From Patescibacteria group bacterium (GTDB lineage: Bacteria > Patescibacteriota > Minisyncoccia > UBA6257 > 2-01-FULL-56-20), in NCBI GenBank assembly GCA_038063055.1, contig JBBTVY010000004.1, forward strand, positions 1 to 53,581: a DNA stretch of 53,581 bases, read 5' to 3'. Below, piece after piece: positions 10,184-53,527 of the stretch (its first letter is position 1; every line of letters begins with the position of its first letter). Both the position numbers and the translations under genes were made by a program. The notes under the pieces are model-generated. The model was not told the origin of the DNA and made no database searches. It saw only the letters and a list, made by a program, of their open reading frames with translations.

Positions 10184-10246
10184 GCGCAGGCGGCCGGAAT
10201 CTCAGAAAAGGTTGCCATTTTCCCGTAATTTTGTTATTTTATCTAC

Positions 10247-10930: not shown

Positions 10931-10951
10931 CTACAACCAGAGGAGAATTAT

Positions 10952-12385: not shown

Positions 12386-12389
12386 CAAT

Positions 12390-16186: not shown

Positions 16187-17185
16187 ATGAAATTTTTCGA
16201 CGCGCATACGCACGTTCAATTTGCGGCTTTTGATAAAGACCGGAAAGAAGTTATTGAACGCGCAATTAAAAACGGCGTTTCAATAATAAACGTCGGGACG
16301 CAGGCGGACACTTCGGCGGCCGCGATTAAATTGGCGAATGAATATGCGGAAGGCTTGCCCGCCGAAGCTTTAGCGAAGGCGGGGATTTACGCGAGCGTCG
16401 GTTTGCATCCGATTCACACGGAAAAGTCATATCACGATAAGAAAGAACTTGGTAACGGAGATTCAGCCAAGGCGTTTAATAGTCGCGGAGAAGATTTTGA
16501 CTACGACTACTACAAAAAACTGGCGTTTGACCCGAAAGTCGTCGCGATAGGCGAGTGTGGACTCGATTATTACCGTTTGTCGGAAGAAACCCCTTCGACA
16601 GATTCGACAAGCTCACTGCAAGCAGGCTCAGGGCAGGCAAAAGAAAAACAAAAAAAGGTATTCATAAAACAAATTGAATTGGCGAAAGATGTCAAAAAGC
16701 CCCTGATGATTCACTGTCGCTCCAGCGTACCGAAGCGAACATCGCCCCAGAATGGGGCGGGCCGTAACGCATTTCAGGACCTTATAGATATTCTTGTTTC
16801 TTGTCGCTTATCTCTTGTTTCTCCGCCGGGCGTTATACACTTCTTCAGCGGCACAGCCGGAGACGCCAAAAAGCTTTTGGAACTCGGTTTTTCGTTTACT
16901 TTTGGAGGTGTGGTTACATTTCCGCCAAGAAACAGATTCGACAAGCTCACTGCGGGAGGGAATAGCGCCGGCGATTACGACGAAGTTATAAAAATGATTC
17001 CTTTGGACAGGATTTTGAGTGAGACCGACGCGCCTTATGTGACACCGGCGCCTTATCGCGGAAAAAGAAACGAACCGCTTTATGTGATTGAAGTCGTAAA
17101 AAAACTGGCGGAAATAAAAGATGTCTCGACCGAAGAAATGGCAGAAAAAATTTTTGAAAACGCCAAAAGAATATTTAAAATTTAG
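16187..17185 (+). CDS. tatD: TatD-family metal-dependent hydrolase carrying several in-frame repeat insertions
   Basis: It has FDAHTHV, GECGLDY, MIHCR and ETDAPY motifs. At 332 aa it is about 75 aa longer than a typical TatD, and the excess maps to repeat elements. Confidence 0.9.
   Translation: MKFFDAHTHVQFAAFDKDRKEVIERAIKNGVSIINVGTQADTSAAAIKLANEYAEGLPAEALAKAGIYASVGLHPIHTEKSYHDKKELGNGDSAKAFNSRGEDFDYDYYKKLAFDPKVVAIGECGLDYYRLSEETPSTDSTSSLQAGSGQAKEKQKKVFIKQIELAKDVKKPLMIHCRSSVPKRTSPQNGAGRNAFQDLIDILVSCRLSLVSPPGVIHFFSGTAGDAKKLLELGFSFTFGGVVTFPPRNRFDKLTAGGNSAGDYDEVIKMIPLDRILSETDAPYVTPAPYRGKRNEPLYVIEVVKKLAEIKDVSTEEMAEKIFENAKRIFKI
16591..16638. repeat. family-A GC-rich repeat (ccttcgac..gctca(g/c)..cagggcaagc type), in frame in tatD
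   Basis: The sequence cccttcgacagattcgacaagctcactgcaagcaggctcagggcaggc encodes PSTDSTSSLQAGSGQA. Confidence 0.75.
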
Positions 17186-28778: not shown

Positions 28779-28887
28779 TTTGCTCCGATGTTCGTTTCAC
28801 TCAATACGGAGCATCGAAATTCTAAAACGCTTTGCGCTAAGAATTTCTGATGCGTAGGGTAGAGGATTTCTGTTTTTCCATCCAGCG

Positions 28888-28974
28888 CGGAGGAGGTGAG
28901 ATTCGAACTCACGATGCCCTTTCAAGCATACCGCATTTCGAGTGCGGCGCCTTCGGCCACTCAGCCACTCCTCC
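28888..28974 (-). tRNA. tRNA-Ser(CGA)
   Basis: Manual cloverleaf: acceptor GGAGGAG/CTCCTCC, anticodon loop CTCGAAA, long variable arm, T-loop TTCGAAT. Confidence 0.9.
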
Positions 28975-29089
28975 GTTAGAAAATCTTAGCGATTCACAAT
29001 AACGAAAAGCTTTAGATTTTCTTTTGCTCCGACCGCGGTCGGGACACTCATTTTTCTAAGCTTATAATTCGCTAAAAAAAAATTGAGTG

Positions 29090-29161
29090 TCCCCCCGGTA
29101 GGAATCGAACCTACATCAGCTCGTTAGGAGTGAGCCATTCTATCCATTGAACTACGAGGGG
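29090..29161 (-). tRNA. tRNA-Arg(CCT)
   Basis: Manual cloverleaf: acceptor CCCCTCG/CGGGGGG, anticodon loop CTCCTAA, T-loop TTCGATT. There is one A-C mismatch in the anticodon stem. Confidence 0.85.
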
Positions 29162-29208
29162 TATGCCAAATCAATCCTGCTATACGCTTTTTCATTGCGA
29201 AAAATTCT

Positions 29209-29424
29209 TTAAGCAATAATCCAATTATTTTCGGAAATTATTTTGCTTGCATTGCGACGATTCAACCACCGTTCGTAATGCAGAGGAGAGATTGTAACAC
29301 CTTTTACATATCTGGAAACCGTAGATTTAGGACGGTTGAGATGTTTGCTGATCTCGGGGATACTAAACCCTCTTCTTCTCAAGCTTCTTATTTGGGAAAT
29401 TATTTTGGTATTCAAGCTCTTCAC
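29209..29424 (-). CDS. small HTH protein (71 aa, GTG start), possible remnant of a homing-endonuclease/resolvase-type gene
   Basis: IRSLRRRGFSIPEISKHLNRPKSTVSRYV is a classic helix-turn-helix. The ORF sits between tRNA-Arg(CCT) and a decayed copy of a tRNA-Arg 5' half. Confidence 0.55.
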   Translation of the reverse strand: MKSLNTKIISQIRSLRRRGFSIPEISKHLNRPKSTVSRYVKGVTISPLHYERWLNRRNASKIISENNWIIA

Positions 29425-29458
29425 GTATATTATTATATCAAATAATATACCCTTTACA

Positions 29459-29494
29459 AGGATAAGATTGCTCTATCCATTGAACTACGAGGGC
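29459..29494 (-). pseudogene. tRNA-Arg 5'-half fragment (acceptor to anticodon CCT, no 3' half)
   Basis: It reads GCCCTCGTAGTTCAATGGATAGAGCAATCTTATCCT. A 22-nt stretch (29472-29493) is identical to 29139-29160 of the intact tRNA-Arg(CCT). Confidence 0.7.
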
Positions 29495-29510
29495 ATCTAT
29501 CGGAAGTTTG

Positions 29511-29581
29511 TGGACCTACGGGGAGTCGAACCCCGACCTGTTCCATGCCATGGAACTGTTCTACCGCTATACTATAGGCCC
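29511..29581 (-). tRNA. tRNA-Ala(GGC)
   Basis: Manual cloverleaf: G3:U70 in the acceptor GGGCCTA/TAGGTCC, anticodon loop ATGGCAT. Confidence 0.85.
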
Positions 29582-29672
29582 TGTTTTTCTTGCAACGCGG
29601 CGTTTTGTAGGATATATTATAATTTATCGCTAAAATTTTTTCAAACTTATTTTGAATTAACCCGCTTTCAAG

Positions 29673-29744
29673 GCCGCGGTAGCTCAGTGGTAGAGCGCTA
29701 CCCTGAAGAGGTAGGCGTCGGGTGTTCGATTCACCCCCGCGGCA
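29673..29744 (+). tRNA. tRNA-Phe(GAA)
   Basis: Manual cloverleaf: GCCGCGG/CCGCGGC, D-arm GCTCAGTGGTAGAGC, anticodon loop CTGAAGA. Confidence 0.92.
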
Positions 29745-29757
29745 CACTTCGCATAAA

Positions 29758-30468
29758 ATGAGTAATCTGCCCAAACATATAGTTCTCATTCCTGACGGAA
29801 ACAGGCGGTGGGCCAAGAAAAAAGGCCTGCCGCCGTTTTTCGGCCACCGCGAGGGAGCTAAGAACACGGAAAAATTGCTCAAGGCCGCGCTGAATTTAGG
29901 AATAGAAAATCTTACCATTTGGGGCTGTTCGGTTGATAATGTTACAAAAAGGACTCCGGCAGAAGTGAAGTTTCTCATGAAAATATTCGAAACCTACTCT
30001 AAAAAGCTCGCCAATAACAGGAAAGAAATTCCTGAAAACGAAGTTAGAGTAAATGTTCTTGGCAGATGGAAAGAACTGTTCCCTGAAGCCACCAAAAAAG
30101 CGATACAATCGGCCATTGATAAAACAAAAAAATATGACAAGCGCCGGCTTACTGTCCTGATGGCTTATAGCGGGACGGACGAAATGACACAAGCGGTAAA
30201 TAAAATTTCGGCGCTGAAATCAAAAAATAAAAAGCTGAAAATCGACGGGAATTTGATAAAAAATAATCTTTGGACTAAAGATTTGCCGCCGGTGGATTTG
30301 GTAATCAGGATGGGCGGCGAACCACACTTGTCAAGCGGCATGATGATGTGGGACATAGCCAACAGCCAGCTTTATTTTACGGAAACCCTTTATCCGGACT
30401 TCTCTGTTGCGGAATTCAAGAAAGCGTTGGAGAATTACGGCAAGACCGAACGGAGAATGGGGAAGTAG
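29758..30468 (+). CDS. uppS: isoprenyl transferase (undecaprenyl-diphosphate synthase)
   Basis: I start it at ATG 29758 (MSNLPKHIVLIPDGNRRWA). RMGGEPHLSSGMMMW is also present. The longer ORF would overlap tRNA-Phe. Confidence 0.92.
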   Translation: MSNLPKHIVLIPDGNRRWAKKKGLPPFFGHREGAKNTEKLLKAALNLGIENLTIWGCSVDNVTKRTPAEVKFLMKIFETYSKKLANNRKEIPENEVRVNVLGRWKELFPEATKKAIQSAIDKTKKYDKRRLTVLMAYSGTDEMTQAVNKISALKSKNKKLKIDGNLIKNNLWTKDLPPVDLVIRMGGEPHLSSGMMMWDIANSQLYFTETLYPDFSVAEFKKALENYGKTERRMGK

Positions 30469-30476
30469 TTTGAGAT

Positions 30477-30562
30477 GGGCCGTTAGTCCGACCGCTGTCG
30501 GACTCCGACTGCGGTCGGAGCTCAGTTGCGGTCGGAGCTCAGTTGCGGTCGGAGTAGAGCGC
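30477..30562 (+). pseudogene. disrupted copy of the tRNA-Ala(TGC) 5' region (acceptor + D-arm) interrupted by ccgac..gtcgg hairpin repeats
   Basis: GGGCCGTTAG ... AGCTCAGTTG (x2, inside a 17-nt tandem repeat) ... GTAGAGCGC matches positions 1-27 of the intact tRNA at 30826. Confidence 0.65.
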
Positions 30563-30564
30563 AA

Positions 30565-30822
30565 ATGAAAAAACAAAGCAATAAAAATGGCAGATATTAC
30601 ACTGGCAGCACAGACGACATGGAAAACAGATTGAAGTGTCATAATTCCGGCTGGGTCGCCGCAACTAAAAATTACCGACCATTTAAGTTGTTAGCTTTTT
30701 TGCCTTGTGCTAATTTAAGTGAAGCTAGGAAATCAGAGTATCGTCTTAAGCAATACAAGAGAAAGGATATATTGGAAAAAGTAGTCGCCGATCTAGAATT
30801 TCCCTGGTTGCATAAAGTTTAG
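30565..30822 (+). CDS. GIY-YIG nuclease-family protein (YhbQ/UPF0213-like), apparently lacking the first GIY strand
   Basis: It has YYTGSTDDMENRLKCHNSG and EARKSEYRLKQ. The stop lies 3 nt before tRNA-Ala(TGC). Confidence 0.7.
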   Translation: MKKQSNKNGRYYTGSTDDMENRLKCHNSGWVAATKNYRPFKLLAFLPCANLSEARKSEYRLKQYKRKDILEKVVADLEFPWLHKV

Positions 30823-30825
30823 AAT

Positions 30826-30898
30826 GGGCCGTTAGCTCAGTTGGTAGAGCGCCTCGTTTGCAACGAGGAGGTCAGCGGTTCAAATCCGCTACGGTCCA
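30826..30898 (+). tRNA. tRNA-Ala(TGC)
   Basis: Manual cloverleaf: GGGCCGT/ACGGTCC with G3:U70, anticodon loop TTTGCAA. Confidence 0.92.
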
Positions 30899-30920
30899 CA
30901 GGCCTGTCTGCGGCAGGCAG

Positions 30921-30956
30921 GGTGGGGTGTCCGAGTGGTTTAAGGAGACGGTCTTG
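30921..30956 (+). pseudogene. tRNA-Ser 5'-half fragment
   Basis: GGTGGGGTGTCCGAGTGGTTTAAGGAGACGGTCTTG parallels the intact tRNA-Ser(TGA) up to anticodon-loop position 35 and then diverges. Confidence 0.65.
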
Positions 30957-31009
30957 TTCCCGATTTGTCTGAGCGGAGCGAAGTTACAAATCGCAATCCC
31001 GCACAGAGC

Positions 31010-31096
31010 GGAGGCGTGCGTGAGTGGTTTAAACGGACGGTCTTGAAAACCGTTATGCCTTAACCGGCATCGAAGGTTCGAATCCTTCCGCCTCCG
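31010..31096 (+). tRNA. tRNA-Ser(TGA)
   Basis: Manual cloverleaf: GGAGGCG/CGCCTCC, anticodon loop CTTGAAA, long variable arm TATGCCTTAACCGGCATC. Confidence 0.9.
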
Positions 31097-31196
31097 CTTT
31101 GTGCGGGAAAAACATCAATGAGAGTTCTCCCGCCGCGGCGGGAAGAATCTCACCCCCACCGCCAGAAAAAAGTTTTATCGGCAGACCCACCAGCAT

Positions 31197-31727
31197 ATGG
31201 CACATATCAATATTGAGATTAAAGCAAGGTGTGATAATCACGAAAAAGTTCGCAACTTTCTTAAATCTAGGAAGGCGGGTTTTAGGGGTATAGACCATCA
31301 AGTAGATACATATTTTAAAGTTGGGGCTGGAAGATTGAAGCTACGAGAGGGTAATATTGAAAATTATTTAATTTTCTATGAGAGAGAAAATAAAGAAGGG
31401 CCAAAACAATCTAAGGTTAATCTCTTCAAAACGCCCCCAAAATCCTCACTAAAGGACATCCTTACTCAGGCTTTGGGAGTTTTGGTAATAGTTGATAAGA
31501 AGAGGGAGATTTATTTTATTGAAAATGTAAAGTTCCATATTGATACAGTCAAAGATCTAGGAACTTTTATGGAAATCGAAGCCATTGATAGTGATGGAAA
31601 TATAGGAAAAGAAAAACTTTTAGAGCAGTGTAATAACTACATAAAATCATTCGATATTTCAGAAAATGACCTTATATCTGTCTCCTATAGCGATTTGCTT
31701 TTACAACAGCCCAACCCACATGCCTAA
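31197..31727 (+). CDS. CYTH-domain protein (class IV adenylate cyclase / triphosphatase-like)
   Basis: It has the N-terminal INIEIKAR (ExExK motif), then GRLKLRE, FHIDTV and FMEIEA strands. Confidence 0.8.
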   Translation: MAHINIEIKARCDNHEKVRNFLKSRKAGFRGIDHQVDTYFKVGAGRLKLREGNIENYLIFYERENKEGPKQSKVNLFKTPPKSSLKDILTQALGVLVIVDKKREIYFIENVKFHIDTVKDLGTFMEIEAIDSDGNIGKEKLLEQCNNYIKSFDISENDLISVSYSDLLLQQPNPHA

Positions 31728-31911
31728 AATTTCAATTTTTTCAGACCCTCAATAAATCCTTATACTGCTTGCGCACGGTGGACACTTAACCCGAGTGTCC
31801 CGCCAGTTAGAGGATCGGTTCGAGAAACATTCCGGCCTGCGGTGGCAGGGCGACCTAAATACATCTACATCAATACCCAAGTTTTCGCAGAGCAGCTATA
31901 ATAAAACACTA

Positions 31912-32811
31912 ATGAGACACATTATCGAATCACAGCAATTCGATCGAAAAACCATAGAAAATATTTTTTACCTTGCAGACAGTTTAGAGAAAAAGAAAGA
32001 TTCATCATTGAAAGGGAAAATAATGGCATCGCTTTTTTATGAACCGAGTACCAGAACCCGGTTTTCGTTTGAATCAGCAATGTTGCGACTTGGGGGAGAT
32101 GTTATCACAACTGAAAATGCTAAAGAATTTTCCTCGGCAGCGAAAGGAGAAACATTGGAGGATACAATACGAGTTATCAATAACTATGCCGACGTCATTG
32201 TACTCCGACACTACGAGAAAGGCGCTTCGGAAAGAGCTGCTACGGTGTCCGAAATTCCCATCATTAACGCCGGGGACGGAACTGGCCAACACCCCACACA
32301 GGCCCTCCTTGATATTTACACAATCCGAAAAGAGCTTGGAAAAATCGACGGGATAAAAATCGCTTTTGTGGGTGATCTAAAAAATGGAAGGACGGTGCGA
32401 TCATTGGCCTACTTACTTGGCAAATATCATAATGTGCGAATCTTTTTTATATCGCCGCGAGGGCTCAAAATAAGCAGAGACATAAAAGATTATTTAAACA
32501 GACATGCCATCTCTTATAAAGAGCTAGAGCAATGGGATTCGATCCTAAAAAATATTGATGTTCTTTATCAGACAAGAATTCAAAAGGAGAGATTTAAAAA
32601 TGTTCGAGAATACAAAAAATTCAAGGGGCAGTATATTCTTACGCTTAAAGAGGTCGAGAAAATGAAATCGAATGCGATTATTATGCATCCTCTTCCGCGA
32701 GTGGACGAAATAGCGGTTGAAGTAGATTCTTCGCCCAAAGCGGCCTATTTTAAACAAGCGCGCTACGGACTACTTATAAGAATGGCGCTTCTTAAATTTT
32801 TACTAAAATAA
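31912..32811 (+). CDS. pyrB: aspartate carbamoyltransferase catalytic subunit
   Basis: I start it at ATG 31912 (MRHIIESQQF). FYEPSTRTRFSFE, HPTQALLD and MHPLPR are present. Confidence 0.93.
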   Translation: MRHIIESQQFDRKTIENIFYLADSLEKKKDSSLKGKIMASLFYEPSTRTRFSFESAMLRLGGDVITTENAKEFSSAAKGETLEDTIRVINNYADVIVLRHYEKGASERAATVSEIPIINAGDGTGQHPTQALLDIYTIRKELGKIDGIKIAFVGDLKNGRTVRSLAYLLGKYHNVRIFFISPRGLKISRDIKDYLNRHAISYKELEQWDSILKNIDVLYQTRIQKERFKNVREYKKFKGQYILTLKEVEKMKSNAIIMHPLPRVDEIAVEVDSSPKAAYFKQARYGLLIRMALLKFLLK

Positions 32812-32937
32812 ACGAGCGACATACAGGCCTCGAATGATTCACTGCCAAGAACGTTGCAACGACTTGCCAGAACCGGTTATAAACCCACGCACTCCGCCAG
32901 TTTTGATTGTCAATTATTCGTATAAATTTCGGCGCGG

Positions 32938-33321
32938 CTACCAATAAATCCAAATGCCGTAAGAACGCAGAAACGGGCCTCCAAAATATGAAGCAGCGTT
33001 GCCGCAGAAAGACGCGACAAACGCGGTTCTCCAGCTTATTTTAAGAAAAAGCCGGTAGAAAATCGCTTCGACGGCGAAAGCAAACAACTCGCTAAATACC
33101 AGAGACGCATCCGGAGACCAATTGTAAGCGTAGGGGAAGACGAACCAGACGTACGGAATGGTTGCAAAAGAAGCGAATAACCCCGCGAATATTATCGATT
33201 TATAATCCAGCGCCGGTTTTTTCCAAATAAACTTAAAAATCAGTAATAAAATTGCCGTTTCGACCACAGCCGTAAAAACAAGCGAAGTTATAAATCTATG
33301 TATCAAAAATATTGTTATCAT
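32938..33321 (-). CDS. small 4-TM membrane protein, hypothetical
   Basis: The 127-aa product has four hydrophobic helices. I recognised no motif. Confidence 0.55.
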   Translation of the reverse strand: MITIFLIHRFITSLVFTAVVETAILLLIFKFIWKKPALDYKSIIFAGLFASFATIPYVWFVFPYAYNWSPDASLVFSELFAFAVEAIFYRLFLKISWRTAFVASFCGNAASYFGGPFLRSYGIWIYW

Positions 33322-33446
33322 TATTTTAAGCGGATTATAAAAATTATAACCCGTACAACAAAAAGATAAACCATATAATTTTTTTTATGCCTGAGCAGGG
33401 ATAATTTGCTTAGAAGAGAAAATCGTTTACAATTCTTTTGCCGGAT

Positions 33447-33518
33447 GCCGGAGTAGCTCAATGGCAGAGCAATGCTTTCGTAAAGCAGAGGTTGGAGGTT
33501 CGACTCCTCTCTCCGGCT
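33447..33518 (+). tRNA. tRNA-Thr(CGT)
   Basis: Manual cloverleaf: GCCGGAG/CTCCGGC, anticodon loop TTCGTAA, T-loop TTCGACT. Confidence 0.85.
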
Positions 33519-33528
33519 CATAACGCTT

Positions 33529-34155
33529 TTAGGTTGTTGCATCCAATTTATTCTTTGGCAACGTTCTTTTTTTGAAATATCGTATCGCTGAATAAGCGAT
33601 TATTAGAGCAGTGTAGTTTACGACTATGAACAGGGGATTTGCCCAAGCATATCCCTGGAACTTCCATCCTGCGATTGGCCAAAAAACGGGAGTCGGGTAA
33701 AACGCGTAGGAATGCGTCGGAACGTCGAGAGCTATATGGAGGAACCACCCGCCCATTTCCCAGGGAATTCGATTTTTTTTAAGGAAAAATTTTCTGAAAA
33801 TAATTACAAGCGCTATAACGACGAAGAAAACGACCATGCTGTGCGAAATGTTGTAAAGCGACGCGGTCAGATAAGAAATCGATGATTCGGCCTGTCGCGT
33901 GTCGCCGTTGCCAAAAAGAAGTTTCCTTTCAGGTTCGTCTCCTGTCGGCGGATGTATATCCGAAAAGTTAACGTTGCCCGAAAGCAGATTCCCAAAAAGC
34001 CAGACGAATGGAATTGTGAAGGCGAATAAATCCGGGAAAACGCCCCAAAAAGCCGTCAGCCAGACGTTAAGCTTCCTTTTAGATTCTTTACCCTGAGCTT
34101 GTCGAAGGGCTTTTGCTGCCGCTCCGGCCCAAAGACCATGTGAAAGAATGTCCAT
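33529..34155 (-). CDS. membrane-bound metal-dependent hydrolase (YdjM/DUF457-like)
   Basis: It has MDILSHGLWA at the N-terminus, His-rich loops and 4-5 TM helices. It carries an in-frame family-A repeat (ALRQAQGK). Confidence 0.7.
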   Translation of the reverse strand: MDILSHGLWAGAAAKALRQAQGKESKRKLNVWLTAFWGVFPDLFAFTIPFVWLFGNLLSGNVNFSDIHPPTGDEPERKLLFGNGDTRQAESSISYLTASLYNISHSMVVFFVVIALVIIFRKFFLKKNRIPWEMGGWFLHIALDVPTHSYAFYPTPVFWPIAGWKFQGYAWANPLFIVVNYTALIIAYSAIRYFKKRTLPKNKLDATT

Positions 34156-34197
34156 TATATCTAGTCTTGCGTAATTTTCTCGGTGCCCCGCACAAAG

Positions 34198-34271
<74 letters not shown>

Positions 34272-34407
34272 ACTTTGTGCGGGATTGCGATTTGTGCATA
34301 AAAATTCTACGCGAGCTTGAATTTTTAGACAAATCGGAAATAAACTTACGCTCTACTGCCACTGCCTGTCCGCCTCTGGCGGAAGCTAATCGCGCTCTTA
34401 CGTTATC

Positions 34408-35194
34408 TTAACGGAATTCAATTACAAGCGGCAAGTGGTCGGAAATTTCGATATCCGGCGCGCTAAACCCTAAAACTTCAATTTCCGGGGAAACGAAAGT
34501 ATAATCGGAAAATTTTAATTCTCTCGGAGTCCCGTGCCACGGCGAAATTTTGCTTCGCGTTGTCGAGACGCCATATTTTTTTATAAGATTCACGAATTTA
34601 TCTTCAAACATGATGATACTTTGAGTTTGAGGAAATACGTTGAAATCGCCGCAAATTATGACAGGGCCGTTTTCTTTAGTGGCGAATTCTTTTATTAATC
34701 GCGACTGTTCCAGTCGTTCTGGCGTGTCAAGCTTGTCATCGGGGCGAAAAGTCAGGCCGTGCACGTTTATAACGGCAATTACATTGTTTTTATAAGGTAT
34801 TCTTAAATAGCCGAAATTGCTGGGATAGAATTTATTTTCTGCCGGATAAATATCCTTCTTCCCAGAACTTATCGGTATTTCTCCCGACGAGACGATTGGA
34901 ATCTGTTTTTTGACAAACTCCGCCTGACCAGTTTCCAGTTCAAAATCGACAGGACCTTCGACATCAAAGCCGTTGCTGACAGGATGGAAGACGCTATTGA
35001 AATCAGGCAATGCATTTGTTATTTCGTCGAGAATGTTAATTCTGGTTTTTTCGGCTGGTTTCAATGTCTTTTCTAGACGACCTGAAAACTTCCTGAAAAC
35101 AAAAAATGTCCGTGGAATCGGCTTGTCCGCGGACAAATTTCATAAGCGGTTCGTATACTCTCCCACCCCAGACATTTAGGCAAATAAGTTTCAT
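34408..35194 (-). pseudogene. endonuclease/exonuclease/phosphatase (EEP)-family gene interrupted by a +1 frameshift
   Basis: The N-terminal 37 aa (MKLICLNVWGGRVYEPLMKFVRGQADSTDIFCFQEVF, from ATG 35194) are in one frame. The rest (..VINVHGL..IICGDFNV..ISDHLPLVIEF) is in the +1 frame. The junction lies near the T6/T4 runs at 35084-35107. Confidence 0.75.
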
Positions 35195-35309
35195 TATGAA
35201 AACAAAGTTGATTTTAATCTATTTTCGCGATAATTTAAAGATACACTTTGGTTCGTTTGTGTGAATTTAAGCGGGCTTGCCCGCCATAGTTCGCACAGGT
35301 GAGCGAAGG

Positions 35310-35380
35310 CGGGCTGTCGTATACCGGTAGTACGCATACTTTGGGAGTATGTAGACTGGGTTCAATTCCCAGCAGCCCGA
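35310..35380 (+). tRNA. tRNA-Pro(TGG)
   Basis: Manual cloverleaf: CGGGCTG/CAGCCCG (C1:G72), anticodon loop TTTGGGA. Confidence 0.9.
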
Positions 35381-35446
35381 CACGAATTTTCCCCAAGAGC
35401 GCAGCGATTGGTCGGAAAATTCAGTGCCCCGCCATCGGCGGGGCGA
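35381..35446 (+). repeat. conserved two-hairpin trailer module, copy A (after tRNA-Pro(TGG))
   Basis: It contains gaattttcc..ggaaaattc and gccccgcc-atc-ggcggggc hairpins. It is nearly identical to 46589-46654 on the opposite strand, after tRNA-Pro(GGG). Confidence 0.7.
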
Positions 35447-35458
35447 TATCCGAAGTAT

Positions 35459-35530
35459 GCCCTCGTAGCTTAATGGACAAAGCAGGACTCTTCTAAGGTC
35501 TTGATGGGGGTTCGATTCCCTCCGAGGGTA
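35459..35530 (+). tRNA. tRNA-Arg(TCT)
   Basis: Manual cloverleaf: GCCCTCG/CGAGGGT, anticodon loop CTTCTAA. Confidence 0.88.
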
Positions 35531-35604
35531 CGTTACGAATTCCTACACCCGCAACTGCGAGGCTGTCGTGGTATAATTTTGGGGGAAGAAAATTTTTTAA
35601 TCCT

Positions 35605-40534: not shown

Positions 40535-40585
40535 GCTCCTTCGACCCTTCGACTACGCTCGGGGCAGGCAAGCTCAGGACAAGTC
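40535..40585. repeat. family-A repeat, intergenic (upstream of infA)
   Basis: The sequence is gctccttcgacccttcgactacgctcggggcaggcaagctcaggacaagtc. Confidence 0.75.
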
Positions 40586-42695: not shown

Positions 42696-42711
42696 TAAAA
42701 TAAACAAAAAT

Positions 42712-42745
42712 TTTCTAGATTCTACTTTCTAGATTCTAGATTCTC
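42712..42745. repeat. 7-nt-periodic array (ttctaga/ttctact) in the rpoA 5' UTR
   Basis: The sequence is ttctagattctactttctagattctagattctcg. Confidence 0.8.
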
Positions 42746-42752
42746 GTCAATC

Positions 42753-43565
42753 ATGAACTACACTTATCTAAGCGAAACAATAGGAATAAAAACGGTTTCC
42801 GAAGACGCAAAAAAGGGAATATTTGAAATAGAAGGCCTTTATTCCGGTTACGGTCTTACGATTGGCAACGCCATTCGCAGGGCTCTACTCTCTTCGCTTC
42901 CCGGGGCGGCGGTAACATACATAAAAATAAAAAACGCCCAGCATGAATTTTCCACCCTGCCTGGCCTGAAAGAAGACCTGGTCGATTTAACGCTTAATTT
43001 CAAAAGAATACGCTTTAAAATGCACACCGACGAGACTCAAATACTTACCCTTAAGATAAAAGGCGAAAAAGAAGTTACGGCGGGGGACATAAAAACCAGT
43101 TCCGTCGTGGAAGTGGCCAATCCGGACGAACACGTTGCCTCCATGACCTCCAAGAACGCCGAGCTCGATATTGAAATTACGGTTGAGAAGGGTTTGGGTT
43201 ATTCGTCCGTCGAGTCGAGGAAGGAAAAAAAGCTGACTGTCGGCCTGATAGGAATCGACGCGTTTTTTTCGCCGGTCAGGAAAGTCAATTACACCATTGA
43301 AAACATGCGCGTCGGCGAACACACCGATTACAACCGTCTCCGAGTCGAGATAGAAACCGACGGCACTGTCAGTCCGTCTTCCGCGCTCCACAAAACGGCG
43401 AACATACTTAACGACCACTTCCAGAAAGTTTCAGCCGTTCAGGTTCAGGAATTTGAAATGGCCGGCGCAAAATCTTCAAAGCATACGAAGAAAGAAAAAG
43501 AAAACGAAGAAACTCCCAAGAAAAAAGGACGTTCCCCAAAAAAGAATGTAGAAAGTAGTAAGTAG
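42753..43565 (+). CDS. rpoA: DNA-directed RNA polymerase alpha subunit, N-terminal domain only plus Lys-rich tail
   Basis: It has GYGLTIGNAIRRALLSSLPGAAVT and the NTD insert/dimerisation regions. The protein ends at 270 aa with KHTKKEKENEETPKKKGRSPKK and has no alpha-CTD. Confidence 0.92.
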   Translation: MNYTYLSETIGIKTVSEDAKKGIFEIEGLYSGYGLTIGNAIRRALLSSLPGAAVTYIKIKNAQHEFSTLPGLKEDLVDLTLNFKRIRFKMHTDETQILTLKIKGEKEVTAGDIKTSSVVEVANPDEHVASMTSKNAELDIEITVEKGLGYSSVESRKEKKLTVGLIGIDAFFSPVRKVNYTIENMRVGEHTDYNRLRVEIETDGTVSPSSALHKTANILNDHFQKVSAVQVQEFEMAGAKSSKHTKKEKENEETPKKKGRSPKKNVESSK

Positions 43566-43636
43566 AATGTAGCGGAATAAATCCCGTTTAACTATAAACT
43601 TCTACATTCTACATTCTACATTCTAATTTCTAATCT
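43547..43636. repeat. inverted 7-nt-periodic arrays (gtagaat / attctac) spanning the rpoA stop to the rplQ start
   Basis: The arms gtagaaagtagtaagtagaatgtag ... cttctacattctacattctacattctaatttctaat are complementary. Confidence 0.8.
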
Positions 43637-44807: not shown

Positions 44808-44857
44808 CACCCCGAGATTACCTGCCCTGAGCCGAGTCGAAGGGTCGAACGGGTGGA
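44808..44857. repeat. family-A repeat, intergenic, opposite orientation (after rpsI)
   Basis: The sequence is ccaccccgagattacctgccctgagccgagtcgaagggtcgaacgggtgg, with complementary ends ccaccc/gggtgg. Confidence 0.75.
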
Positions 44858-46585: not shown

Positions 46586-46588
46586 ATT

Positions 46589-46654
46589 TCGCCCCGCCAC
46601 GGGCGGGGCACTGAATTTTCCAGCCAATCGCTTCGCTCTTGGGAAAAATTCGTG
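46589..46654 (-). repeat. conserved two-hairpin trailer module, copy B (after tRNA-Pro(GGG))
   Basis: Its reverse complement matches 35381-35446. The few differences lie outside the stem pairs, including the loop of the gccccgcc hairpin. Confidence 0.7.
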
Positions 46655-46725
46655 TCGGGGTGCGGAGAATCGAACTCCGACTACAACCACCCCATGGTCG
46701 CGTACTACCGTTATACTACACCCCG
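46655..46725 (-). tRNA. tRNA-Pro(GGG)
   Basis: Manual cloverleaf: CGGGGTG/CACCCCG, anticodon loop ATGGGGT. Confidence 0.9.
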
Positions 46726-46892: not shown

Positions 46893-47081
46893 TTAGGATT
46901 TACGCTGCTTATGCAGCGTTCTAAGGCACTGGGTGCAGATAAGTTTGCGAACGCCGCCTGTTTTGGTCCACTGGAGATTCGGATACTTTCTCGATTTGGA
47001 AACGGGATTATAGTGGCCCCGGAGAAGTCTTCTTCTTCCTCCCATAATCGAGCCTTTCCCGCAAATTGAGCACTGTCTCAT
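46893..47081 (-). CDS. rpmB: 50S ribosomal protein L28
   Basis: It has MRQCSICGKGSIMG...VSKS.RK..PNLQ. Confidence 0.9.
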   Translation of the reverse strand: MRQCSICGKGSIMGGRRRLLRGHYNPVSKSRKYPNLQWTKTGGVRKLICTQCLRTLHKQRKS

Positions 47082-47084
47082 TGT

Positions 47085-47166
47085 TTAGAATCTAGAATCT
47101 AGAATTTAGAATTTAGAACATAATAACTTTCTACTACATTCTACATACTACTTTCTACATTCTCGT
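47085..47166. repeat. 7-nt-periodic arrays (tctagaa, tttagaa, attctac) upstream of rpmB
   Basis: The sequence is tagaatctagaatctagaatttagaatttagaa ... ctttctactacattctacatactactttctacattctc. Confidence 0.8.
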
Positions 47167-47168
47167 TT

Positions 47169-48616: not shown

Positions 48617-51493
48617 TTACCACTCTTCCATCATCAAAAATCCGCCAGCGCGAATTTTTTGGAATATGGCTTCCGTGACGAACGGCATGAACGGATGAAG
48701 CATTTTCAGGCACTCAATAAGTATCGTTTCAAGCGTGGAGTAAGCCGCGGCGGCATCAGATTCTTCTTTAGCGCTCAAGCGCGCCTGCCCGCCGTAGCTT
48801 TGTCCGGCCTTCGCAGCCGAAGCGGCAGCTTCGGCGGAGTAGGCACGAAGGCGGGGCTTATAACTTTCTATTATTTTGTCGGCAAAATTGTGCCAGACAT
48901 AGTGATAAACCGTTTCGGCGGCCAGATGGAATTCGTAGCGTTCAATGTGCCTGCCGACTTTCGCTTTTATTTTTTTGAGTTCGTTAATGTTTTTTTTGTC
49001 GGCTGCGGTTAATTTCACAATACTTCCGCCCGGTTTTTTCGAATTGTTTCGCCCCGGTTTATTCATAAGAATAAACCGGCTTATATTCCATATTTTTGTT
49101 GCGAAGTTTCTGTAGCCCCTTATTTTATCTTCCGAAATGACTATGTCTTTTCCGGCCGTGTTTCCTGCGACGAGCGCGATGCGAAGAGCGTCGCTTCCGT
49201 AAATTTCGGCGACACCGAGCGGGTCTATTACATTACCCTTGGACTTCGACATTTTTATCTTGTCTTTATCCAGAACCAGGCCGTGGAGATAAACGTTTTT
49301 GAAGGGAATCTTCCCAGTCGTGTAAAGTCCGAGCATTACCATCCGCGCAACCCAGAAGAAAAGAATATCGTATCCGGTTTCCATGACGTCGGTCGGATAG
49401 AATGTCTTAAAGTCGTTCGATGTTCGATGTTCGATGTTCGAACGCCAAACTTTTAACTTCGAACTTTGGCCGCTGGCCAAAAGCGTAGCGAATGGCCACT
49501 GCCCGGAAGAGAACCAGGTATCGAAAACATCACTATCCTGTTCATAGAAGTGATTTCCGCATTTCTTGCAAGGCTCAAGCATGTCGAGTTGTATTATCTC
49601 GGCGTTCTTTATGGAGGGCCTCGAAAGCGCTTCCTTTGGGTCAAGATTTTTTATTCGCTTATTGATCATGCGTATCGTTCCGCCATGCGTGACCAAAACA
49701 ACGTTTTTGTGATTGTTTTTTAAATGATGTGAAGAAAAAGCTTTCCACGCGCGTTGTTCTACATCGTAATAACTTTCTCCGCCATTATATTTGTTTTCAT
49801 ACATATAAGGTTTGCGGCCGTGCTTGAATAGTTCTTCTCTATCCATTCCTTCGACTTCGCCGTAGGAACGCTCTCTTAAGTTCTCGTCGATTATAATCTC
49901 CGCTCCAGTTTCTTTTCGGATAACTTCGGCGGTTTGTTGGCAACGCGCTGAATCCGAGGTTATTACGAGGTCGATATTGTAAATTTTTAGCTTTTTAGCC
50001 GCATCTTTTGCCTGATCGAATCCTGTTTGGTTCAGAGAAATATCGGCATGTCCCATAACCCGGTTTTCTTTGTTCCAATCCGTTTCCCCGTGCCTGACCA
50101 GAAACCACCGCGATTTAACATCGGGGTTTATGCTTGGTTCGGAGCAGGAGAGGCAGTACCAGGCGGGGATTCTTATTCCCCAGACGATTTGCCGCGATAT
50201 GTTCCAGTCGCGGATGTTTTTAAGCCAGTGGAGATAAACTTTTTTGCCGCTTTCCGGGCGGAAAGTTATTTTATTTGCGGCTTTTATGGCTTTTTCCGCG
50301 AGCGGTTTTGTTTTAACGAACCACTGCCGAAGAATTCTCGGTTCAAGAACATTTTGGCATTTATAACAGGTGGCTACGGAGTGTTTGTAATTCCGGTCTA
50401 TTTTTGCGAGCAACCCTTCTTTTTCCATATCCTCTTCGATCAGTTTTCTGGCATCGGCTATTTTCAAACCGTGATATCTTTTAGATTTCTCGTTATCGGA
50501 AAACGCGCTTAAGTCCATGCGGCCGTATTGGTCGATTACTTTCTTGGGGGCGGGAATTTCGTTTTCATGCCTTTTCCATATTTCAAAGTCGTTCGGGTCA
50601 TGTGCCGGAGTAACTTTGACCGCGCCGGTGCCGAATTTCATGTCGACTGCGTCGTCGGCGATAACTTTTATTTTCGCCGGTCCAAGAAGCGTTTTTATTT
50701 CTATTTCTTTGCCGACGTATTTCGAATATCTTTTATCTTTCGGATTAACCGCAACCGCCGTATCGCCGAATTTGGTTTCCGGGCGGACTGTTGCCAGCTC
50801 CAATGGGCCGTACTTTATATAATAGAGCGGGTCTTCTCTCTCGATATATTTGGTTTCAAGTTCCGAAAGTGTCGTCTGGTGTTTTGCGCACCAGTTGACT
50901 ATGCGATTGTCGCGGTAGGCCAAGCCGTCCTTATAAAGTTTTTCGAATGTTTGGTAAACGATTTTGACTATATCCGGGTCGAGCGTGAATTTCTCGCGAG
51001 ACCAGTCGCAGGAGGCGCCTAACTTGCGGAGCTGTTCCTCCATTATTTTTTTGTTGGATTGCGTGAATTCCCATATTTCTTTGAAAAGCTGTTCTCTCGG
51101 TATCTCGAACCTGTTTCTTCCTTCTTTGTCGAGTTTTTTGTCGAACACAACCTGCGTTTCGAATCCCGCGTGGTCGGCGCCCGGAAGCCACAAAGTTTTT
51201 CTGCCCTTCATCCGCCAGAAACGGATTAAAATATCCTGAAGAGTTATGAATACAGCGTGGCCGAGATGAAGCGAGCCGTTGGCGTTCGGCGGAGGCATTA
51301 TTATGCAGAACGTTGATTTACGCGGATTTCTGCGCCGATTTGCGCTGATTTTATATCCGCGCTTATCTGCGTTTATATCTGCGCCCATCTGCGGCGAGTT
51401 GTCTGGATTAAAATACCCGGATTTTTCCCAGAGTTTGTATATTTCTCCCTCCGTTTTCCGGTGGTCGTATCTCGGTTCCAAAAGTTCAAGCAT
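48617..51493 (-). CDS. valS: valine--tRNA ligase, 958 aa, with a nested histidine-phosphatase domain and repeat insertions
   Basis: It has PPPNANGSLHLGHA (HIGH), TGAVKVTPAHDPNDFE (editing), WNISRQIVWGIRIPAWYC, DVFDTWFSSG and KMSKSKGN. Confidence 0.96.
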   Translation of the reverse strand: MLELLEPRYDHRKTEGEIYKLWEKSGYFNPDNSPQMGADINADKRGYKISANRRRNPRKSTFCIIMPPPNANGSLHLGHAVFITLQDILIRFWRMKGRKTLWLPGADHAGFETQVVFDKKLDKEGRNRFEIPREQLFKEIWEFTQSNKKIMEEQLRKLGASCDWSREKFTLDPDIVKIVYQTFEKLYKDGLAYRDNRIVNWCAKHQTTLSELETKYIEREDPLYYIKYGPLELATVRPETKFGDTAVAVNPKDKRYSKYVGKEIEIKTLLGPAKIKVIADDAVDMKFGTGAVKVTPAHDPNDFEIWKRHENEIPAPKKVIDQYGRMDLSAFSDNEKSKRYHGLKIADARKLIEEDMEKEGLLAKIDRNYKHSVATCYKCQNVLEPRILRQWFVKTKPLAEKAIKAANKITFRPESGKKVYLHWLKNIRDWNISRQIVWGIRIPAWYCLSCSEPSINPDVKSRWFLVRHGETDWNKENRVMGHADISLNQTGFDQAKDAAKKLKIYNIDLVITSDSARCQQTAEVIRKETGAEIIIDENLRERSYGEVEGMDREELFKHGRKPYMYENKYNGGESYYDVEQRAWKAFSSHHLKNNHKNVVLVTHGGTIRMINKRIKNLDPKEALSRPSIKNAEIIQLDMLEPCKKCGNHFYEQDSDVFDTWFSSGQWPFATLLASGQSSKLKVWRSNIEHRTSNDFKTFYPTDVMETGYDILFFWVARMVMLGLYTTGKIPFKNVYLHGLVLDKDKIKMSKSKGNVIDPLGVAEIYGSDALRIALVAGNTAGKDIVISEDKIRGYRNFATKIWNISRFILMNKPGRNNSKKPGGSIVKLTAADKKNINELKKIKAKVGRHIERYEFHLAAETVYHYVWHNFADKIIESYKPRLRAYSAEAAASAAKAGQSYGGQARLSAKEESDAAAAYSTLETILIECLKMLHPFMPFVTEAIFQKIRAGGFLMMEEW
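49414..49470. repeat. heptamer array (gttcgat)x3-gttcgaa plus partner arm, in frame in valS
   Basis: The sequence tcgttcgatgttcgatgttcgatgttcgaacgccaaacttttaacttcgaac encodes WRSNIEHRTSNDF. Confidence 0.8.
49580..50113 (-). other. histidine phosphatase (phosphoglycerate-mutase-like) domain nested in ValRS (aa ~461-638)
   Basis: It has the RHGETDWN catalytic motif, SDSARCQQTA, ERSYGEVEG and VLVTHGGTIR. It is inserted between CLSC (aa 447-450) and CKKC (aa 642-645) of the ValRS zinc knuckle. Confidence 0.85.
51311..51391. repeat. family-B repeat, in frame in valS (before HIGH)
   Basis: The sequence gcgcagat / atctgcgtttat... encodes QMGADINADKRGYKISANRRRNPRKST. Confidence 0.8.
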
Positions 51494-52237: not shown

Positions 52238-53434
52238 TCAAATGTTTAAATATCCCTTTGCTTCGAGTTTGTATTTTTTCTTGCGTGAAAGACCAATATA
52301 AGCGGCGGCGGCTATCATGGCGGCGTTGTCGTTGTTGTATTCTAAATCCGAAACAATAAATTTTATTTCCTTGTCTCTTGCTCGCCTCGCTCCCGCTTCG
52401 CCGAATCGAGGCGAGTCGTTGGCGAAACGGGTCGCTTGCCGCAGGTTACTTCTTAATTTTTTGTTGGCGGCCACGCCTCCGCAGAGGATTATCGAGCGGG
52501 CGCCATATTCCTTTGCCGCGCGCATGGTTTTTACAACGAGAACTTCGATAACCGCCCGCTGGAACGAAGCGGCCACATCAGCGAATAACGAATCTTTTCC
52601 GAATTTACGAATTCGTATATTCGTATTAAATTCGTTATTCGTTGATAGTTTTTTATCTCGCAGATAATAGAACACAGAAGTTTTGAGTCCGGAAAAACTG
52701 AAATCATAATTTTTTTGGTTAAGCATCGGTTTCGGAAAATTTATTGAAGGTTTTTCTCCCTTCGGCATACTCAGGGCGAGACGCTCGATCTCCGGTCCGC
52801 CGGGATAGGGGAGTTCGAGCATTCTGGCTACCTTGTCGAAAGCTTCTCCTGCGGCATCATCCCTTGTTTCTCCGAGCTTTTTCCATACCCTTAGGCTTTT
52901 CATCGCAAGAAGAGCAGTATGCCCGCCGCTTACAAGCAGGGCGATTGCTGGGAACATGTTGGAGGTTCGAGATGTTGGAGGTTCGAGATGTTTGGAGTTC
53001 ATAGTTTTACCCCGAACCCCGAACCTCGAACCTCGAACACTTTTTGGCAGTAAAAAACTGTAGAGATGTCCCTCAAGATGATTGGCGCCGAAAAGCGGCT
53101 TTTTATATTTTTTAGCCAATTCTTCCGCAAAATTTATTCCCGTCCAGAGCGCCGGTTCAAGCCCCGGTCCGACCGTTACCGTTATGAAATCTATGTTCTT
53201 CAAATTCGTTCCCGCAGTTTTTAGTTTTTTGAAAAGAATCGGAAGATTTTTCAAGTGCTCGCGCTTGGCAAGATTGGGAACGACTCCGCCGAACGGCCGG
53301 TGGATTTTTATCTGGGAGCTGACGAGATTTTCCAAAACTTTTATTTTGGGATTTGAAAATCCACCTCCTGCTTCGACAACCGCCAGCCCGGTTTCATCGC
53401 ACGAAGTTTCGACTGCGAGTATGGTTTTTTTCAT
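52238..53434 (-). CDS. tsaD: tRNA N6-adenosine threonylcarbamoyltransferase TsaD with three in-frame repeat insertions
   Basis: I start it at ATG 53434 (MKKTILAVETSCDETG). GANHLEGH, LLVSGGHT and CGGVAAN are present. Confidence 0.93.
   Translation of the reverse strand: MKKTILAVETSCDETGLAVVEAGGGFSNPKIKVLENLVSSQIKIHRPFGGVVPNLAKREHLKNLPILFKKLKTAGTNLKNIDFITVTVGPGLEPALWTGINFAEELAKKYKKPLFGANHLEGHLYSFLLPKSVRGSRFGVRGKTMNSKHLEPPTSRTSNMFPAIALLVSGGHTALLAMKSLRVWKKLGETRDDAAGEAFDKVARMLELPYPGGPEIERLALSMPKGEKPSINFPKPMLNQKNYDFSFSGLKTSVFYYLRDKKLSTNNEFNTNIRIRKFGKDSLFADVAASFQRAVIEVLVVKTMRAAKEYGARSIILCGGVAANKKLRSNLRQATRFANDSPRFGEAGARRARDKEIKFIVSDLEYNNDNAAMIAAAAYIGLSRKKKYKLEAKGYLNI
52582..52641. repeat. 60-nt hairpin element with perfect 12-nt terminal inverted repeats, in frame in tsaD
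   Basis: The ends are cgaataacgaat ... attcgttattcg. The length is exactly 20 codons, encoding TNNEFNTNIRIRKFGKDSLF. Confidence 0.8.
52946..53030. repeat. inverted heptamer arrays (ggaggttcgagatgtt x2 ... ccgaacc x2, tcgaacc x2), in frame in tsaD
   Basis: The arms are complementary (ggttcgaggttcg vs cgaacctcgaacc). The element encodes VRGSRFGVRGKTMNSKHLEPPTSRTSN. Confidence 0.8.
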
Positions 53435-53451
53435 GTAATAACTGATGGCTT

Positions 53452-53527
53452 GCACTGAGCGAGCCTTCGACTTGACTCAGGTCAAGGCGGAACGAGTCGA
53501 AGTGCCCGCACTGAGCGAGTCGAAGTG
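53452..53527. repeat. family-A-related repeats, intergenic (between tsaD and tRNA-Glu)
   Basis: The sequence is gcactgagcgagccttcgacttgactcaggtcaaggcggaacgagtcgaagtgcccgcactgagcgagtcgaagtg. Confidence 0.7.

Follow-up and report, generated by a model that had tools for sequence, protein, structure and literature searches.

A valyl-tRNA synthetase from a Patescibacteria group bacterium with a putative histidine phosphatase nested in its CP3 zinc knuckle

We analysed a 53,581-nucleotide stretch of contig JBBTVY010000004.1 (assembly GCA_038063055.1, positions 1 to 53,581) from a Patescibacteria group bacterium, hereafter called the window, and found that its valyl-tRNA synthetase (ValRS) carries an entire histidine phosphatase domain between the two CxxC halves of a zinc knuckle. 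The synthetase is encoded by one open reading frame (ORF) of 958 amino acids (aa) on the minus strand (48617..51493). An original prediction, made from the letters of the sequence, had proposed such a nested domain, and every string that it quoted is present in the translation. Its central claim is borne out by the Pfam profile His_Phos_1 (PF00300), which, searched with the full-length protein, gives E=2.5e-46 and 158.2 bits (cut-off 21.7) over profile positions 2-181 of 194, and with the excised 179-aa insert alone E=9.2e-48. The interval first given for the domain, 49580-50113 (aa 461-638), fits the Pfam envelope (aa 464-638, 49580-50104), but the full domain is slightly larger and extends over aa 462-640 (49574-50110). 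Residues 442-461, directly before the insert, read IPAWYCLSCSEPSINPDVKS, and EPCKKCGNHFYEQDSDVFDTWFSSG follows directly after it. The features of the gene, all on the minus strand, are listed here in the order of the protein.

48617..51493: valS ORF with the nested phosphatase, from the ORF listing and with NF004349 and TIGR00422 above cut-off
50156..51493: N-terminal part of ValRS, aa 1-446, with the first half of the Rossmann domain, the CP1 editing domain and WNISRQ...IPAWY (Pfam tRNA-synt_1, 1GAX alignment)
51320..51379: disordered, window-specific peptide, aa 39-58 (...INADKRGYKISANRRRNPRK...), pLDDT <50, absent from most homologs
51257-51268: HLGH motif, aa 76-79
50144..50155: first CxxC of the CP3 zinc knuckle, C447-L-S-C450 (C417/C420 in 1GAX); the cysteines are 96% and 94% conserved
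50111..50143: N-linker, aa 451-461, SEPSINPDVKS (family consensus xxPKINPxIKS, from column conservation), modelled as a short strand with pLDDT >90
49574..50110: His_Phos_1 domain, aa 462-640 (179 aa, RWFLV...DMLE), PF00300
50090-50095: codons of R467-H468
50072-50074: codon of N474
49943-49945: codon of R517
49871-49873: codon of E541
49685-49687: codon of H603
49541..49570: second knuckle half, C642-K-K-C645, and tail G-N-H-F-Y-E651; the cysteines are 97% conserved
48620..49540: C-terminal part of ValRS, aa 652-958, with the anticodon-binding helical domain (alignment to 1GAX 437-705, Pfam Anticodon_1)
49505-49531: DVFDTWFSS pocket motif
49424..49465: disordered variable peptide, aa 677-690, partly a CGAACAT x3 micro-repeat, pLDDT <50
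49241-49255: KMSKS motif, aa 747-751
48755..48826: low-confidence, window-specific, GC-rich peptide, aa 890-913 (AASAAKAGQSYGGQARLSAKEESD), pLDDT 58-64, absent from most homologs

The host enzyme is a valine--tRNA ligase. It scores 814 bits against NF004349 (cut-off 704) and 769 bits against TIGR00422 (cut-off 612), so that both NCBIfam equivalog cut-offs are passed, and Pfam recognises tRNA-synt_1 over aa 47-461 (E=1.4e-118) as well as Anticodon_1. The HLGH and KMSKS motifs are present, as is the CP1 editing region, which can be aligned to both 1GAX and 1WKA. When compared with T. thermophilus ValRS (1GAX), the protein aligns in two blocks, aa 58-454 with residues 32-424 and aa 641-888 with residues 437-663, and the guest therefore takes the place of the short spacer in the CxxC...CxxC knuckle: 191 residues separate the two cysteine pairs here (C450..C642) versus 17 in 1GAX (C420..C438). 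In IleRS nomenclature, CP3 is a peripheral element that connects CP2 with the second Rossmann half, bears a zinc motif in T. thermophilus IleRS, and varies in topology and zinc motif from one IleRS to another (PMC7191050); by that nomenclature the knuckle of the window protein is the zinc motif of CP3. A structural model of the full-length protein, one of the checks suggested at the outset, reached a predicted local distance difference test score (pLDDT) of 90.2 and a predicted template modelling score (pTM) of 0.88, with values of 94-98 for knuckle and insert, and its top fold match was 1GAX. The window ValRS gives no Pfam match to PF10458, the coiled-coil arm that binds tRNA at the C-terminus of canonical bacterial ValRSs, and its sequence stops at a point corresponding to residue 705 of 862 in 1GAX, where that arm would start. 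The arm is kept in P0223 (1067 aa), a more distant insert-bearing ValRS with the insert in a CLSC...CEKC knuckle, and we treat its loss as a clade trait that gives no reason to deny ValRS identity. With its HIGH motif, KMSKS and editing domain intact, the window protein looks like a functional synthetase at the level of sequence.

The same architecture recurs widely. PF00300 is present in 97 of the best 120 homolog clusters, which share 50-71% identity and come from NCBI, JGI, ENA and Logan, and it is absent from 23; the query contained the insert, and these lists consequently favour insert-bearing proteins. Taxa named among them, with labels here and below as in the deposited records, are Liptonbacteria, Paceibacterota, Wolfebacteria and Parcubacteria. 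When one genome for each GTDB species was scanned with the insert profile, 160 confirmed matches were obtained, and among the best 80 of these, which were kept, 57 lie inside a ValRS ORF. As a lower bound, at least 57 species-representative Patescibacteria genomes thus share the arrangement, under labels that include Liptonbacteria, Colwellbacteria, Kaiserbacteria, Moraniibacteriota, Sungbacteria and Portnoybacteria. In NCBI the insert-bearing proteins go by no more specific name than 'class I tRNA ligase family protein'. An artefact, be it a chimeric assembly, a fused gene call or intein-like removal of the domain, is scarcely credible in the light of these data: the reading frame is open and continuous over both insert junctions, and misassembly, chimera or fused gene call is ruled out by the recurrence in 97 clusters and 57 species-representative genomes, since the architecture recurs independently across studies and assemblers. 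With respect to an intein or homing element, no Hint or homing-endonuclease domain was matched in Pfam, and the junctions (...VKS/RWF... and ...MLE/PCKKC) are without splice motifs. Neither direct nor inverted DNA repeats were found flanking the insert, and no second His_Phos gene exists within the window. Base composition does not identify foreign DNA, as the differences (GC 0.434 versus 0.467; GC at third codon positions 0.458 versus 0.537) are modest and not diagnostic.

The insert is apparently a complete and catalytically competent histidine phosphatase, as judged from its conserved residues. In a MAFFT alignment of the window protein with 120 homologs, where conservation was taken over the insert-bearing set, R467 (94%), H468 (96%), G469 (99%), N474 (95%), R517 (98%) and E541 (93%) are conserved, together with E573 (99%), R581 (98%), H603 (98%) and the four knuckle cysteines (94-97%). 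R467, H468, N474, R517, E541 and H603 are equivalent to PhoE residues in the printed alignment. All six are found in 84 of 98 proteins, the window copy included, so that the RHG/H pair is undisrupted here and in most relatives, and 94 of the 98 keep all four knuckle cysteines. Mean pairwise identity is 46% in the insert versus 66% in the host core, and because the catalytic set is 93-98% conserved while the insert is only 46% identical, this set stands out as selected. The specificity cap (approximately aa 546-572) is hypervariable in the family alignment and contains indels. The other 14 of the 98 proteins carry an altered catalytic residue, including two with the nucleophile changed by H468Y (P0039 and P0077) and a clade of five with E541G, and still keep both domain and knuckle, which favours the view that the domain is no longer mainly an enzyme and instead has a structural or regulatory role, for example as a sensor of a phospho-metabolite or through protein contacts that tune ValRS. 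We consider this improbable. Retention of the full R-H-N-R-E-H set in the window copy and most homologs, against the low identity of the rest, is a signature of selection for catalysis, and the domain has repeatedly been lost without visible compensation in the host (see below).

Fold and profile comparisons place the insert among the small phosphatases of the superfamily. The AlphaFold2 model of the isolated insert (pLDDT 95.3, pTM 0.91) recovers the α/β/α sandwich of histidine phosphatase superfamily branch 1. By sequence profile, the closest solved proteins are PhoE (1EBB/1H2E, E=1.6e-34), PspA, S. pombe PGM, CobC and GpgP, and Foldseek returned GpgP, PspA and PhoE at probability 1.00 with template modelling (TM) scores of 0.87-0.90 and a root-mean-square deviation (rmsd) of 1.6-2.4 Å, the match to GpgP having a TM score of 0.90 and an rmsd of ~1.7 Å. 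True mutases (dPGM structures) superpose at 4-6 Å. The best NCBIfam match of the insert is TIGR03162 ribazole_cobC, and dPGM models also match, which lends some colour to the idea that a specific known metabolic enzyme, dPGM or CobC, has been fused to ValRS. Such an assignment is nonetheless very improbable: the alpha-ribazole phosphatase model scores 124.5 bits, below its cut-off of 162.9; TIGR01258 pgm_1 scores 70.3 bits (cut-off 81.7) and covers residues 3-99 only; the other dPGM equivalogs reach 47-84 bits versus cut-offs of 225-421; the domain comprises 179 aa without the dPGM extensions; and the cap is not conserved. The curated NCBIfam thresholds for GpmB and PspA are likewise not reached. 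The description 'PGAM-like' therefore holds at superfamily level and goes no further towards dPGM or CobC; on profile and model evidence, we regard the insert as a compact phosphatase-type member of the superfamily and not as a mutase. Its mean net charge is -0.1 with an isoelectric point of 7.5, which is near neutral, and no RNA-binding-like basic charge was seen on it.

Within the ValRS family the domain behaves as a cassette that can be lost. In a neighbour-joining tree of the hosts (659 host-core columns, no bootstrap), 20-odd insert-lacking ValRSs are dispersed within the insert-bearing clade, with insert-lacking and insert-bearing sisters in P0090/P0009, P0115/P0032 and P0107/P0030. Since the insert-lacking proteins are nested among insert-bearing ones, this distribution implies that the cassette is ancestral to a large Patescibacteria ValRS clade and has been lost many times. 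Only one host position, E651, tracks the presence of the insert (92% with versus 10% without), and no co-adapted host-side interface was detected beyond it. E651 lies in the CxxCGxDLYE tail that free-standing genes (described below) also keep; as the sole tracking position is part of this tail, the unit would extend from about C447 to E651, with no co-adapted host interface detected.

Host and insert identities are nearly uncorrelated (Spearman 0.12), and several ValRS pairs with 90-100% identical flanks have inserts that are only 34-56% identical. Separate pairwise global alignments of the N-terminus, insert and C-terminus gave the following identities.

P0038-P0062: N-terminus 1.00, insert 0.42, C-terminus 0.70
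P0008-P0014: N-terminus 0.92, insert 0.56, C-terminus 0.90
P0083-P0117: N-terminus 0.92, insert 0.51, C-terminus 0.91
P0071-P0072: N-terminus 0.92, insert 0.49, C-terminus 0.84
P0050-P0071, with the opposite pattern: N-terminus 0.91, insert 0.93, C-terminus 0.82

Window-by-window profiles showed that the drop in identity starts between the first CxxC and RHGETD and stops at the second CxxC, that the sequences flanking it on both sides are 95-100% identical, and that the local excess of divergence is approximately sevenfold across the whole folded domain. These profiles, together with the pairwise global alignments, rule out that the incongruence between insert and flanks is an alignment artefact. 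The pair P0038/P0062, taken alone, could represent a chimeric contig, but in several pairs both flanks are equally similar and the middle alone differs, which is unlike a simple chimera. The most plausible explanation for divergence with such sharp bounds is that recombination in the conserved flanks has replaced one allele of the insert by another. A diversity-generating retroelement does not fit, as ~50% divergence over a whole domain with sharp edges would be unlike the short A-mutagenised variable region of such elements.

The phosphatase can also be replaced. In P0006 an ASCH domain (E=8e-6) lies in tandem with His_Phos inside the knuckle, whereas the knuckle of P0091 holds an ASCH-like module alone; the loops of P0119 and P0090 contain modules of ~80-130 aa without a Pfam match; P0078 has a His_Phos of another type (99 bits) without the cysteines; and in P0105 and P0080 the knuckle is lost entirely. 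Two further variants were seen: P0019 has ~140 extra residues upstream of its His_Phos, and P0016 gives a weak match to DUF3850 (PUA-like) at a second site, downstream of DTWFSS.

Members of the same subfamily also occur outside ValRS. Free-standing genes (P0212, P0219, P0224, P0236 and a clade of L001, L035, L056 and L008) encode modules that keep both knuckle halves and adjoining ValRS-like residues, in the form Y[FY]CxxCG ... PCxxCGxDLYE; the members of the L001/L035/L056/L008 clade are 72-100% identical to each other and have no ValRS within ~6 kb. On the ValRS-insert profile, these knuckle-bearing standalones score 202-231 bits, similar to the ValRS-embedded domains (median 228 bits), compared with at most 177 bits (median 136) for generic standalone proteins. 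Given that WYCxxC and CxxCG...D.DV.DTWF are ancestral ValRS features that are found in 1GAX, the free-standing genes most likely derive from an internal segment of ValRS. At locus L007 (a contig of JGI 3300081823), the free-standing gene P0212 (235 aa, 10001-10708) lies 3 bp upstream of an insert-bearing ValRS (10711-13413), and the two phosphatase copies are 48% identical; the locus is syntenic with 44.9-53.5 kb of the window (TsaD ... ValRS-PrsW-HSP20-PEGA). Neither this spare copy nor the free-standing clade qualifies as a recent donor: their best identity to the sampled resident inserts is ~50-53%, and no donor-recipient pair is therefore demonstrated.

Class I synthetases other than ValRS host comparable guests. 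When the insert was searched against 1.84 billion representatives, long proteins were among the best matches, and all of those scanned with Pfam were class I synthetases. IleRS-type enzymes (with DUF5915) contain two His_Phos units between WGTPLPIW and EVLDCWFESGS, a loop homologous to the ValRS site, and other synthetase fragments have up to four RHG motifs; P0238 has an additional His_Phos copy after KMSKR. The IleRS-embedded domains score 74-138 bits on the ValRS-insert profile, like generic standalones and free-standing tandem di-His_Phos proteins. Because these scores fall in the generic-standalone range, the capture looks independent, and IleRS appears, on its sequences, to have acquired His_Phos separately at the homologous loop. 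A free-standing tandem di-His_Phos family (P0217, P0221, P0242, P0260 and ~10 others; 360-470 aa) resembles the tandem pairs embedded in the IleRS-type enzymes P0243, P0238, P0226 and P0232. In the window itself, the original prediction had pointed to a second synthetase with an inserted hydrolase, and indeed the LeuRS encoded at 18134-21703 (plus strand, 1189 aa) carries an Abhydrolase/Ser_hydrolase domain (aa 274-428) and a NUDIX domain (aa 586-709), both nested in its CP1 editing region. Relatives of this LeuRS have both domains, either one, neither, or NUDIX together with Ham1/ITPase (P0402). The suggestion of a lineage-wide strategy is thus supported, and it is widened by the guests of LeuRS relatives and by His_Phos in the homologous loop of IleRS-type enzymes.

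With regard to function, we lean, with moderate confidence, towards an autonomous accessory phosphomonoesterase that would act on small phosphoesters and be carried in a permissive loop of the essential ValRS. According to this model, a branch-1 histidine phosphatase of the PhoE/GpgP/PspA/CobC type has been accommodated by opening up the CP3 zinc knuckle. Sequence and structural model predict that the two CxxC pairs still coordinate a single zinc and hold both ends of the phosphatase next to each other, which would leave the fold of the synthetase undisturbed. His468 would be phosphorylated during catalysis, with Glu541 as the acid. The substrate would be a small phosphoester of nucleotide-, sugar- or amino-acid-phosphate type, and the domain would take no part in the chemistry of aminoacylation. 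Within a streamlined genome, ValRS would be its carrier, being permissive, essential and constitutively expressed, and the α/β-hydrolase, NUDIX and Ham1 guests of LeuRS would be carried likewise. The cassette is kept under selection for catalysis, yet has repeatedly been deleted, replaced (by ASCH or another His_Phos) or, probably through recombination, exchanged for divergent alleles. Autonomy is favoured because the closest relatives are small-substrate phosphatases, the module stands alone in some genomes, no co-adaptation of the host was detected, the charge is near neutral and CP3 is plastic.

Several observations weigh against this reading and bear at the same time on the main alternative, a phosphatase that targets tRNA or the synthetase itself and forms a built-in repair or counter-defence module. 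The cap is hypervariable and contains indels; an enzyme dedicated to a single conserved metabolite would not usually show this, and a macromolecular or changing substrate would fit. In two paralogous synthetases, the homologous CP3 loop is occupied by at least three lineages of His_Phos (those of the main ValRS clade, of P0078 and of the tandem IleRS arrangement), some in 2-4 tandem copies, and RNA-associated, PUA-like ASCH occurs in tandem with one His_Phos in the knuckle of P0006; multi-lineage capture and ASCH hint at more than a permissive site, namely a tie to tRNA or the synthetase. Turnover as rapid as that of the cassette is commoner in conflict systems than among housekeeping enzymes, and turnover with retention of catalytic residues resembles conflict-driven evolution. 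The pTM of 0.88 suggests a defined pose of the insert on its host in the model. To the points against autonomy we add that the host tree has no bootstrap values. Pyrophosphorylation of the tRNA 3'-CCA by toxins is an established block of aminoacylation (10.1101/2021.04.30.441581; PMC11559606; PMC9712102). In one version of the alternative, the domain, tethered beside the synthetic site, would strip from the acceptor end of tRNA a 3'-phosphate or 2',3'-cyclic phosphate left by nucleases, or a 3'-pyrophosphate added by toxSAS/CapRel-type toxins; in another, a HipA-like kinase would have inhibited the synthetase by phosphorylation, and the domain would reverse this. We regard a role of this kind as possible but doubtful. 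The near-neutral insert has no obvious RNA-binding charge, the module also persists as a free-standing gene away from ValRS, inserts are swapped among hosts without co-adaptation on the host side, and no toxin or kinase genes were seen near valS in the window or in the related loci inspected. To our knowledge, no member of the histidine phosphatase superfamily acts on RNA 3' ends. A bolder combination of these ideas, which we offer as a speculation that is rather unlikely to be correct, would make the CP3 knuckle of Patescibacteria class Ia synthetases a recombination-driven docking port for interchangeable cassettes (His_Phos lineages, ASCH and other modules), with the phosphatase acting on the tRNA acceptor end or the synthetase, for example by removing a 3'-phosphate or 3'-pyrophosphate; the aminoacyl-tRNA synthetase would then be self-repairing, and the turnover would reflect an arms race.

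Comparison with known systems brings out what is shared and what differs. PhoE (YhfR, a broad-specificity phosphatase of Geobacillus stearothermophilus, 1EBB/1H2E), GpgP (Rv2419c, 4PZ9/6S2Q), PspA (4IJ5) and CobC (6NRU) share with the insert the fold, the His of the RHG motif, the Asn, the second Arg, the Glu acid and the second His, at 26-31% sequence identity and a comparable size of ~180-210 aa. These enzymes are free-standing, whereas the window domain lies inside a loop of a synthetase, with a CxxC...CxxC knuckle clamping its ends; set against them, the cap is hypervariable within the ValRS-insert family. The CP1 editing domain of IleRS, ValRS and LeuRS is likewise hydrolytic and nested in a class Ia Rossmann domain with a zinc-stapled entry and exit. 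It is universal in these synthetases, acts on the aminoacyl ester of tRNA and belongs to an insertion-only family (PMC13114784), whereas the His_Phos cassette is lineage-restricted, dispensable and from a family of free-standing enzymes. An IleRS with an N-acetyltransferase (NF040702, ileS_w_GNAT) also has an additional catalytic domain, unrelated to the class Ia synthetase that carries it, but there the guest is GNAT and not His_Phos; the window ValRS matches NF040702 via its synthetase part only. In the RNase H/acid phosphatase of Rv2228c type (NF005567), a CobC-like histidine phosphatase is also fused to a nucleic-acid enzyme, although end to end and with another partner, and its phosphatase half is matched by the insert with a score of 85.6 bits (cut-off 326). 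The Parcubacteria free-standing knuckle and His_Phos proteins described above, which carry no annotation, have the same subfamily and flanking elements as the insert but lie outside a synthetase and are ~50% identical to the resident inserts. We found no description of a histidine-phosphatase insert in ValRS or IleRS in full-text literature searches, and in a 2026 survey of domain insertions synthetases appear only as hosts of editing domains (PMC13114784). Already known are the public sequences with their automatic Pfam matches and the existence of a curated synthetase with an extra catalytic domain (ileS_w_GNAT); as far as sequence comparison can tell, the new elements are the dynamics of the cassette, the knuckle modules that stand alone, and the convergent insertion in IleRS.

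Apart from the phosphatase, the window ValRS carries short peptides of a different kind. The stretches modelled as disordered are only aa 39-58, 677-690, 821-823 and approximately 890-913. Three repeat-derived peptides had been proposed for this gene, and one of them, aa 39-58, is clearly a repeat shared with LeuRS: it stems from a short DNA repeat that is in frame in both genes (INADKRGYKISANRRRNPRKS in ValRS, INADGHADKRRYISENLRSNQRKSA in LeuRS), with inverted DNA copies at 51345-51393 (ValRS) and 21383-21417 (C-terminal region of LeuRS). For the other two the proposal held less well. The CGAACAT micro-repeat of aa 677-690 has no demonstrated partner elsewhere in the window, and the DNA of aa 890-913 bears only a loose likeness to the GGGCAGGC..GCTCAG repeat family. 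Disordered peptides encoded by short DNA repeat families that lie in frame within essential genes include INADKRGYKISANRRR (ValRS), INADGHADKRRYISENLRSNQRKSA (LeuRS) and RPAQGKRAQGKKA or SARSGQVP (LeuRS), and further short-repeat sites lie at 18228-18278, 20728-20762, 16588-16638, 40540-40578 and 44811-44849. The TsaD ORF (52238-53455, minus strand, 405 aa) seems to have extra low-complexity or GC-rich stretches, such as SVRGSRFGVRGKTMNSKHLEPPTSRTSNM and ANDSPRFGEAGARRARDKE, and its Pfam match is split in two; these are possibly more in-frame repeat insertions. An intergenic repeat family (42708-42751, 43538-43631 and 47080-47168) consists of units TCTAGATTCTA or TCTACATTCTA in direct and inverted copies beside gene ends, one of them just downstream of the HSP20 gene. 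The window contains 12 tRNA genes, with a tRNA gene cluster at 28887-35531 and 46654-46725, and an inverted repeat (35310-35449 and 46586-46725; 140 nt, 81% complementary) comprises tRNA-Pro(TGG) and tRNA-Pro(GGG) with ~70 nt of flank each. The ORF at 25292-28078 (plus strand, 928 aa) gives weak matches to DUF4430, squalene-hopene cyclase C-terminal and cobalamin-binding protein (α/α-toroid-like).

Aminoacyl-tRNA synthetases are among the most conserved enzymes, and accessory catalytic domains are rare in bacterial ones. Here, a clade of ultra-small bacteria retains a phosphatase with an intact active site inside ValRS, and different hydrolases are hosted by the lineage's LeuRS. An autonomous phosphatase would be a clear natural case of essential genes carrying accessory enzymes in streamlined genomes, and the knuckle would then offer protein engineers a ready-made insertion site that nature has already validated. 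A phosphatase acting instead on the synthetase or on tRNA would represent a new kind of translation quality control or counter-defence.

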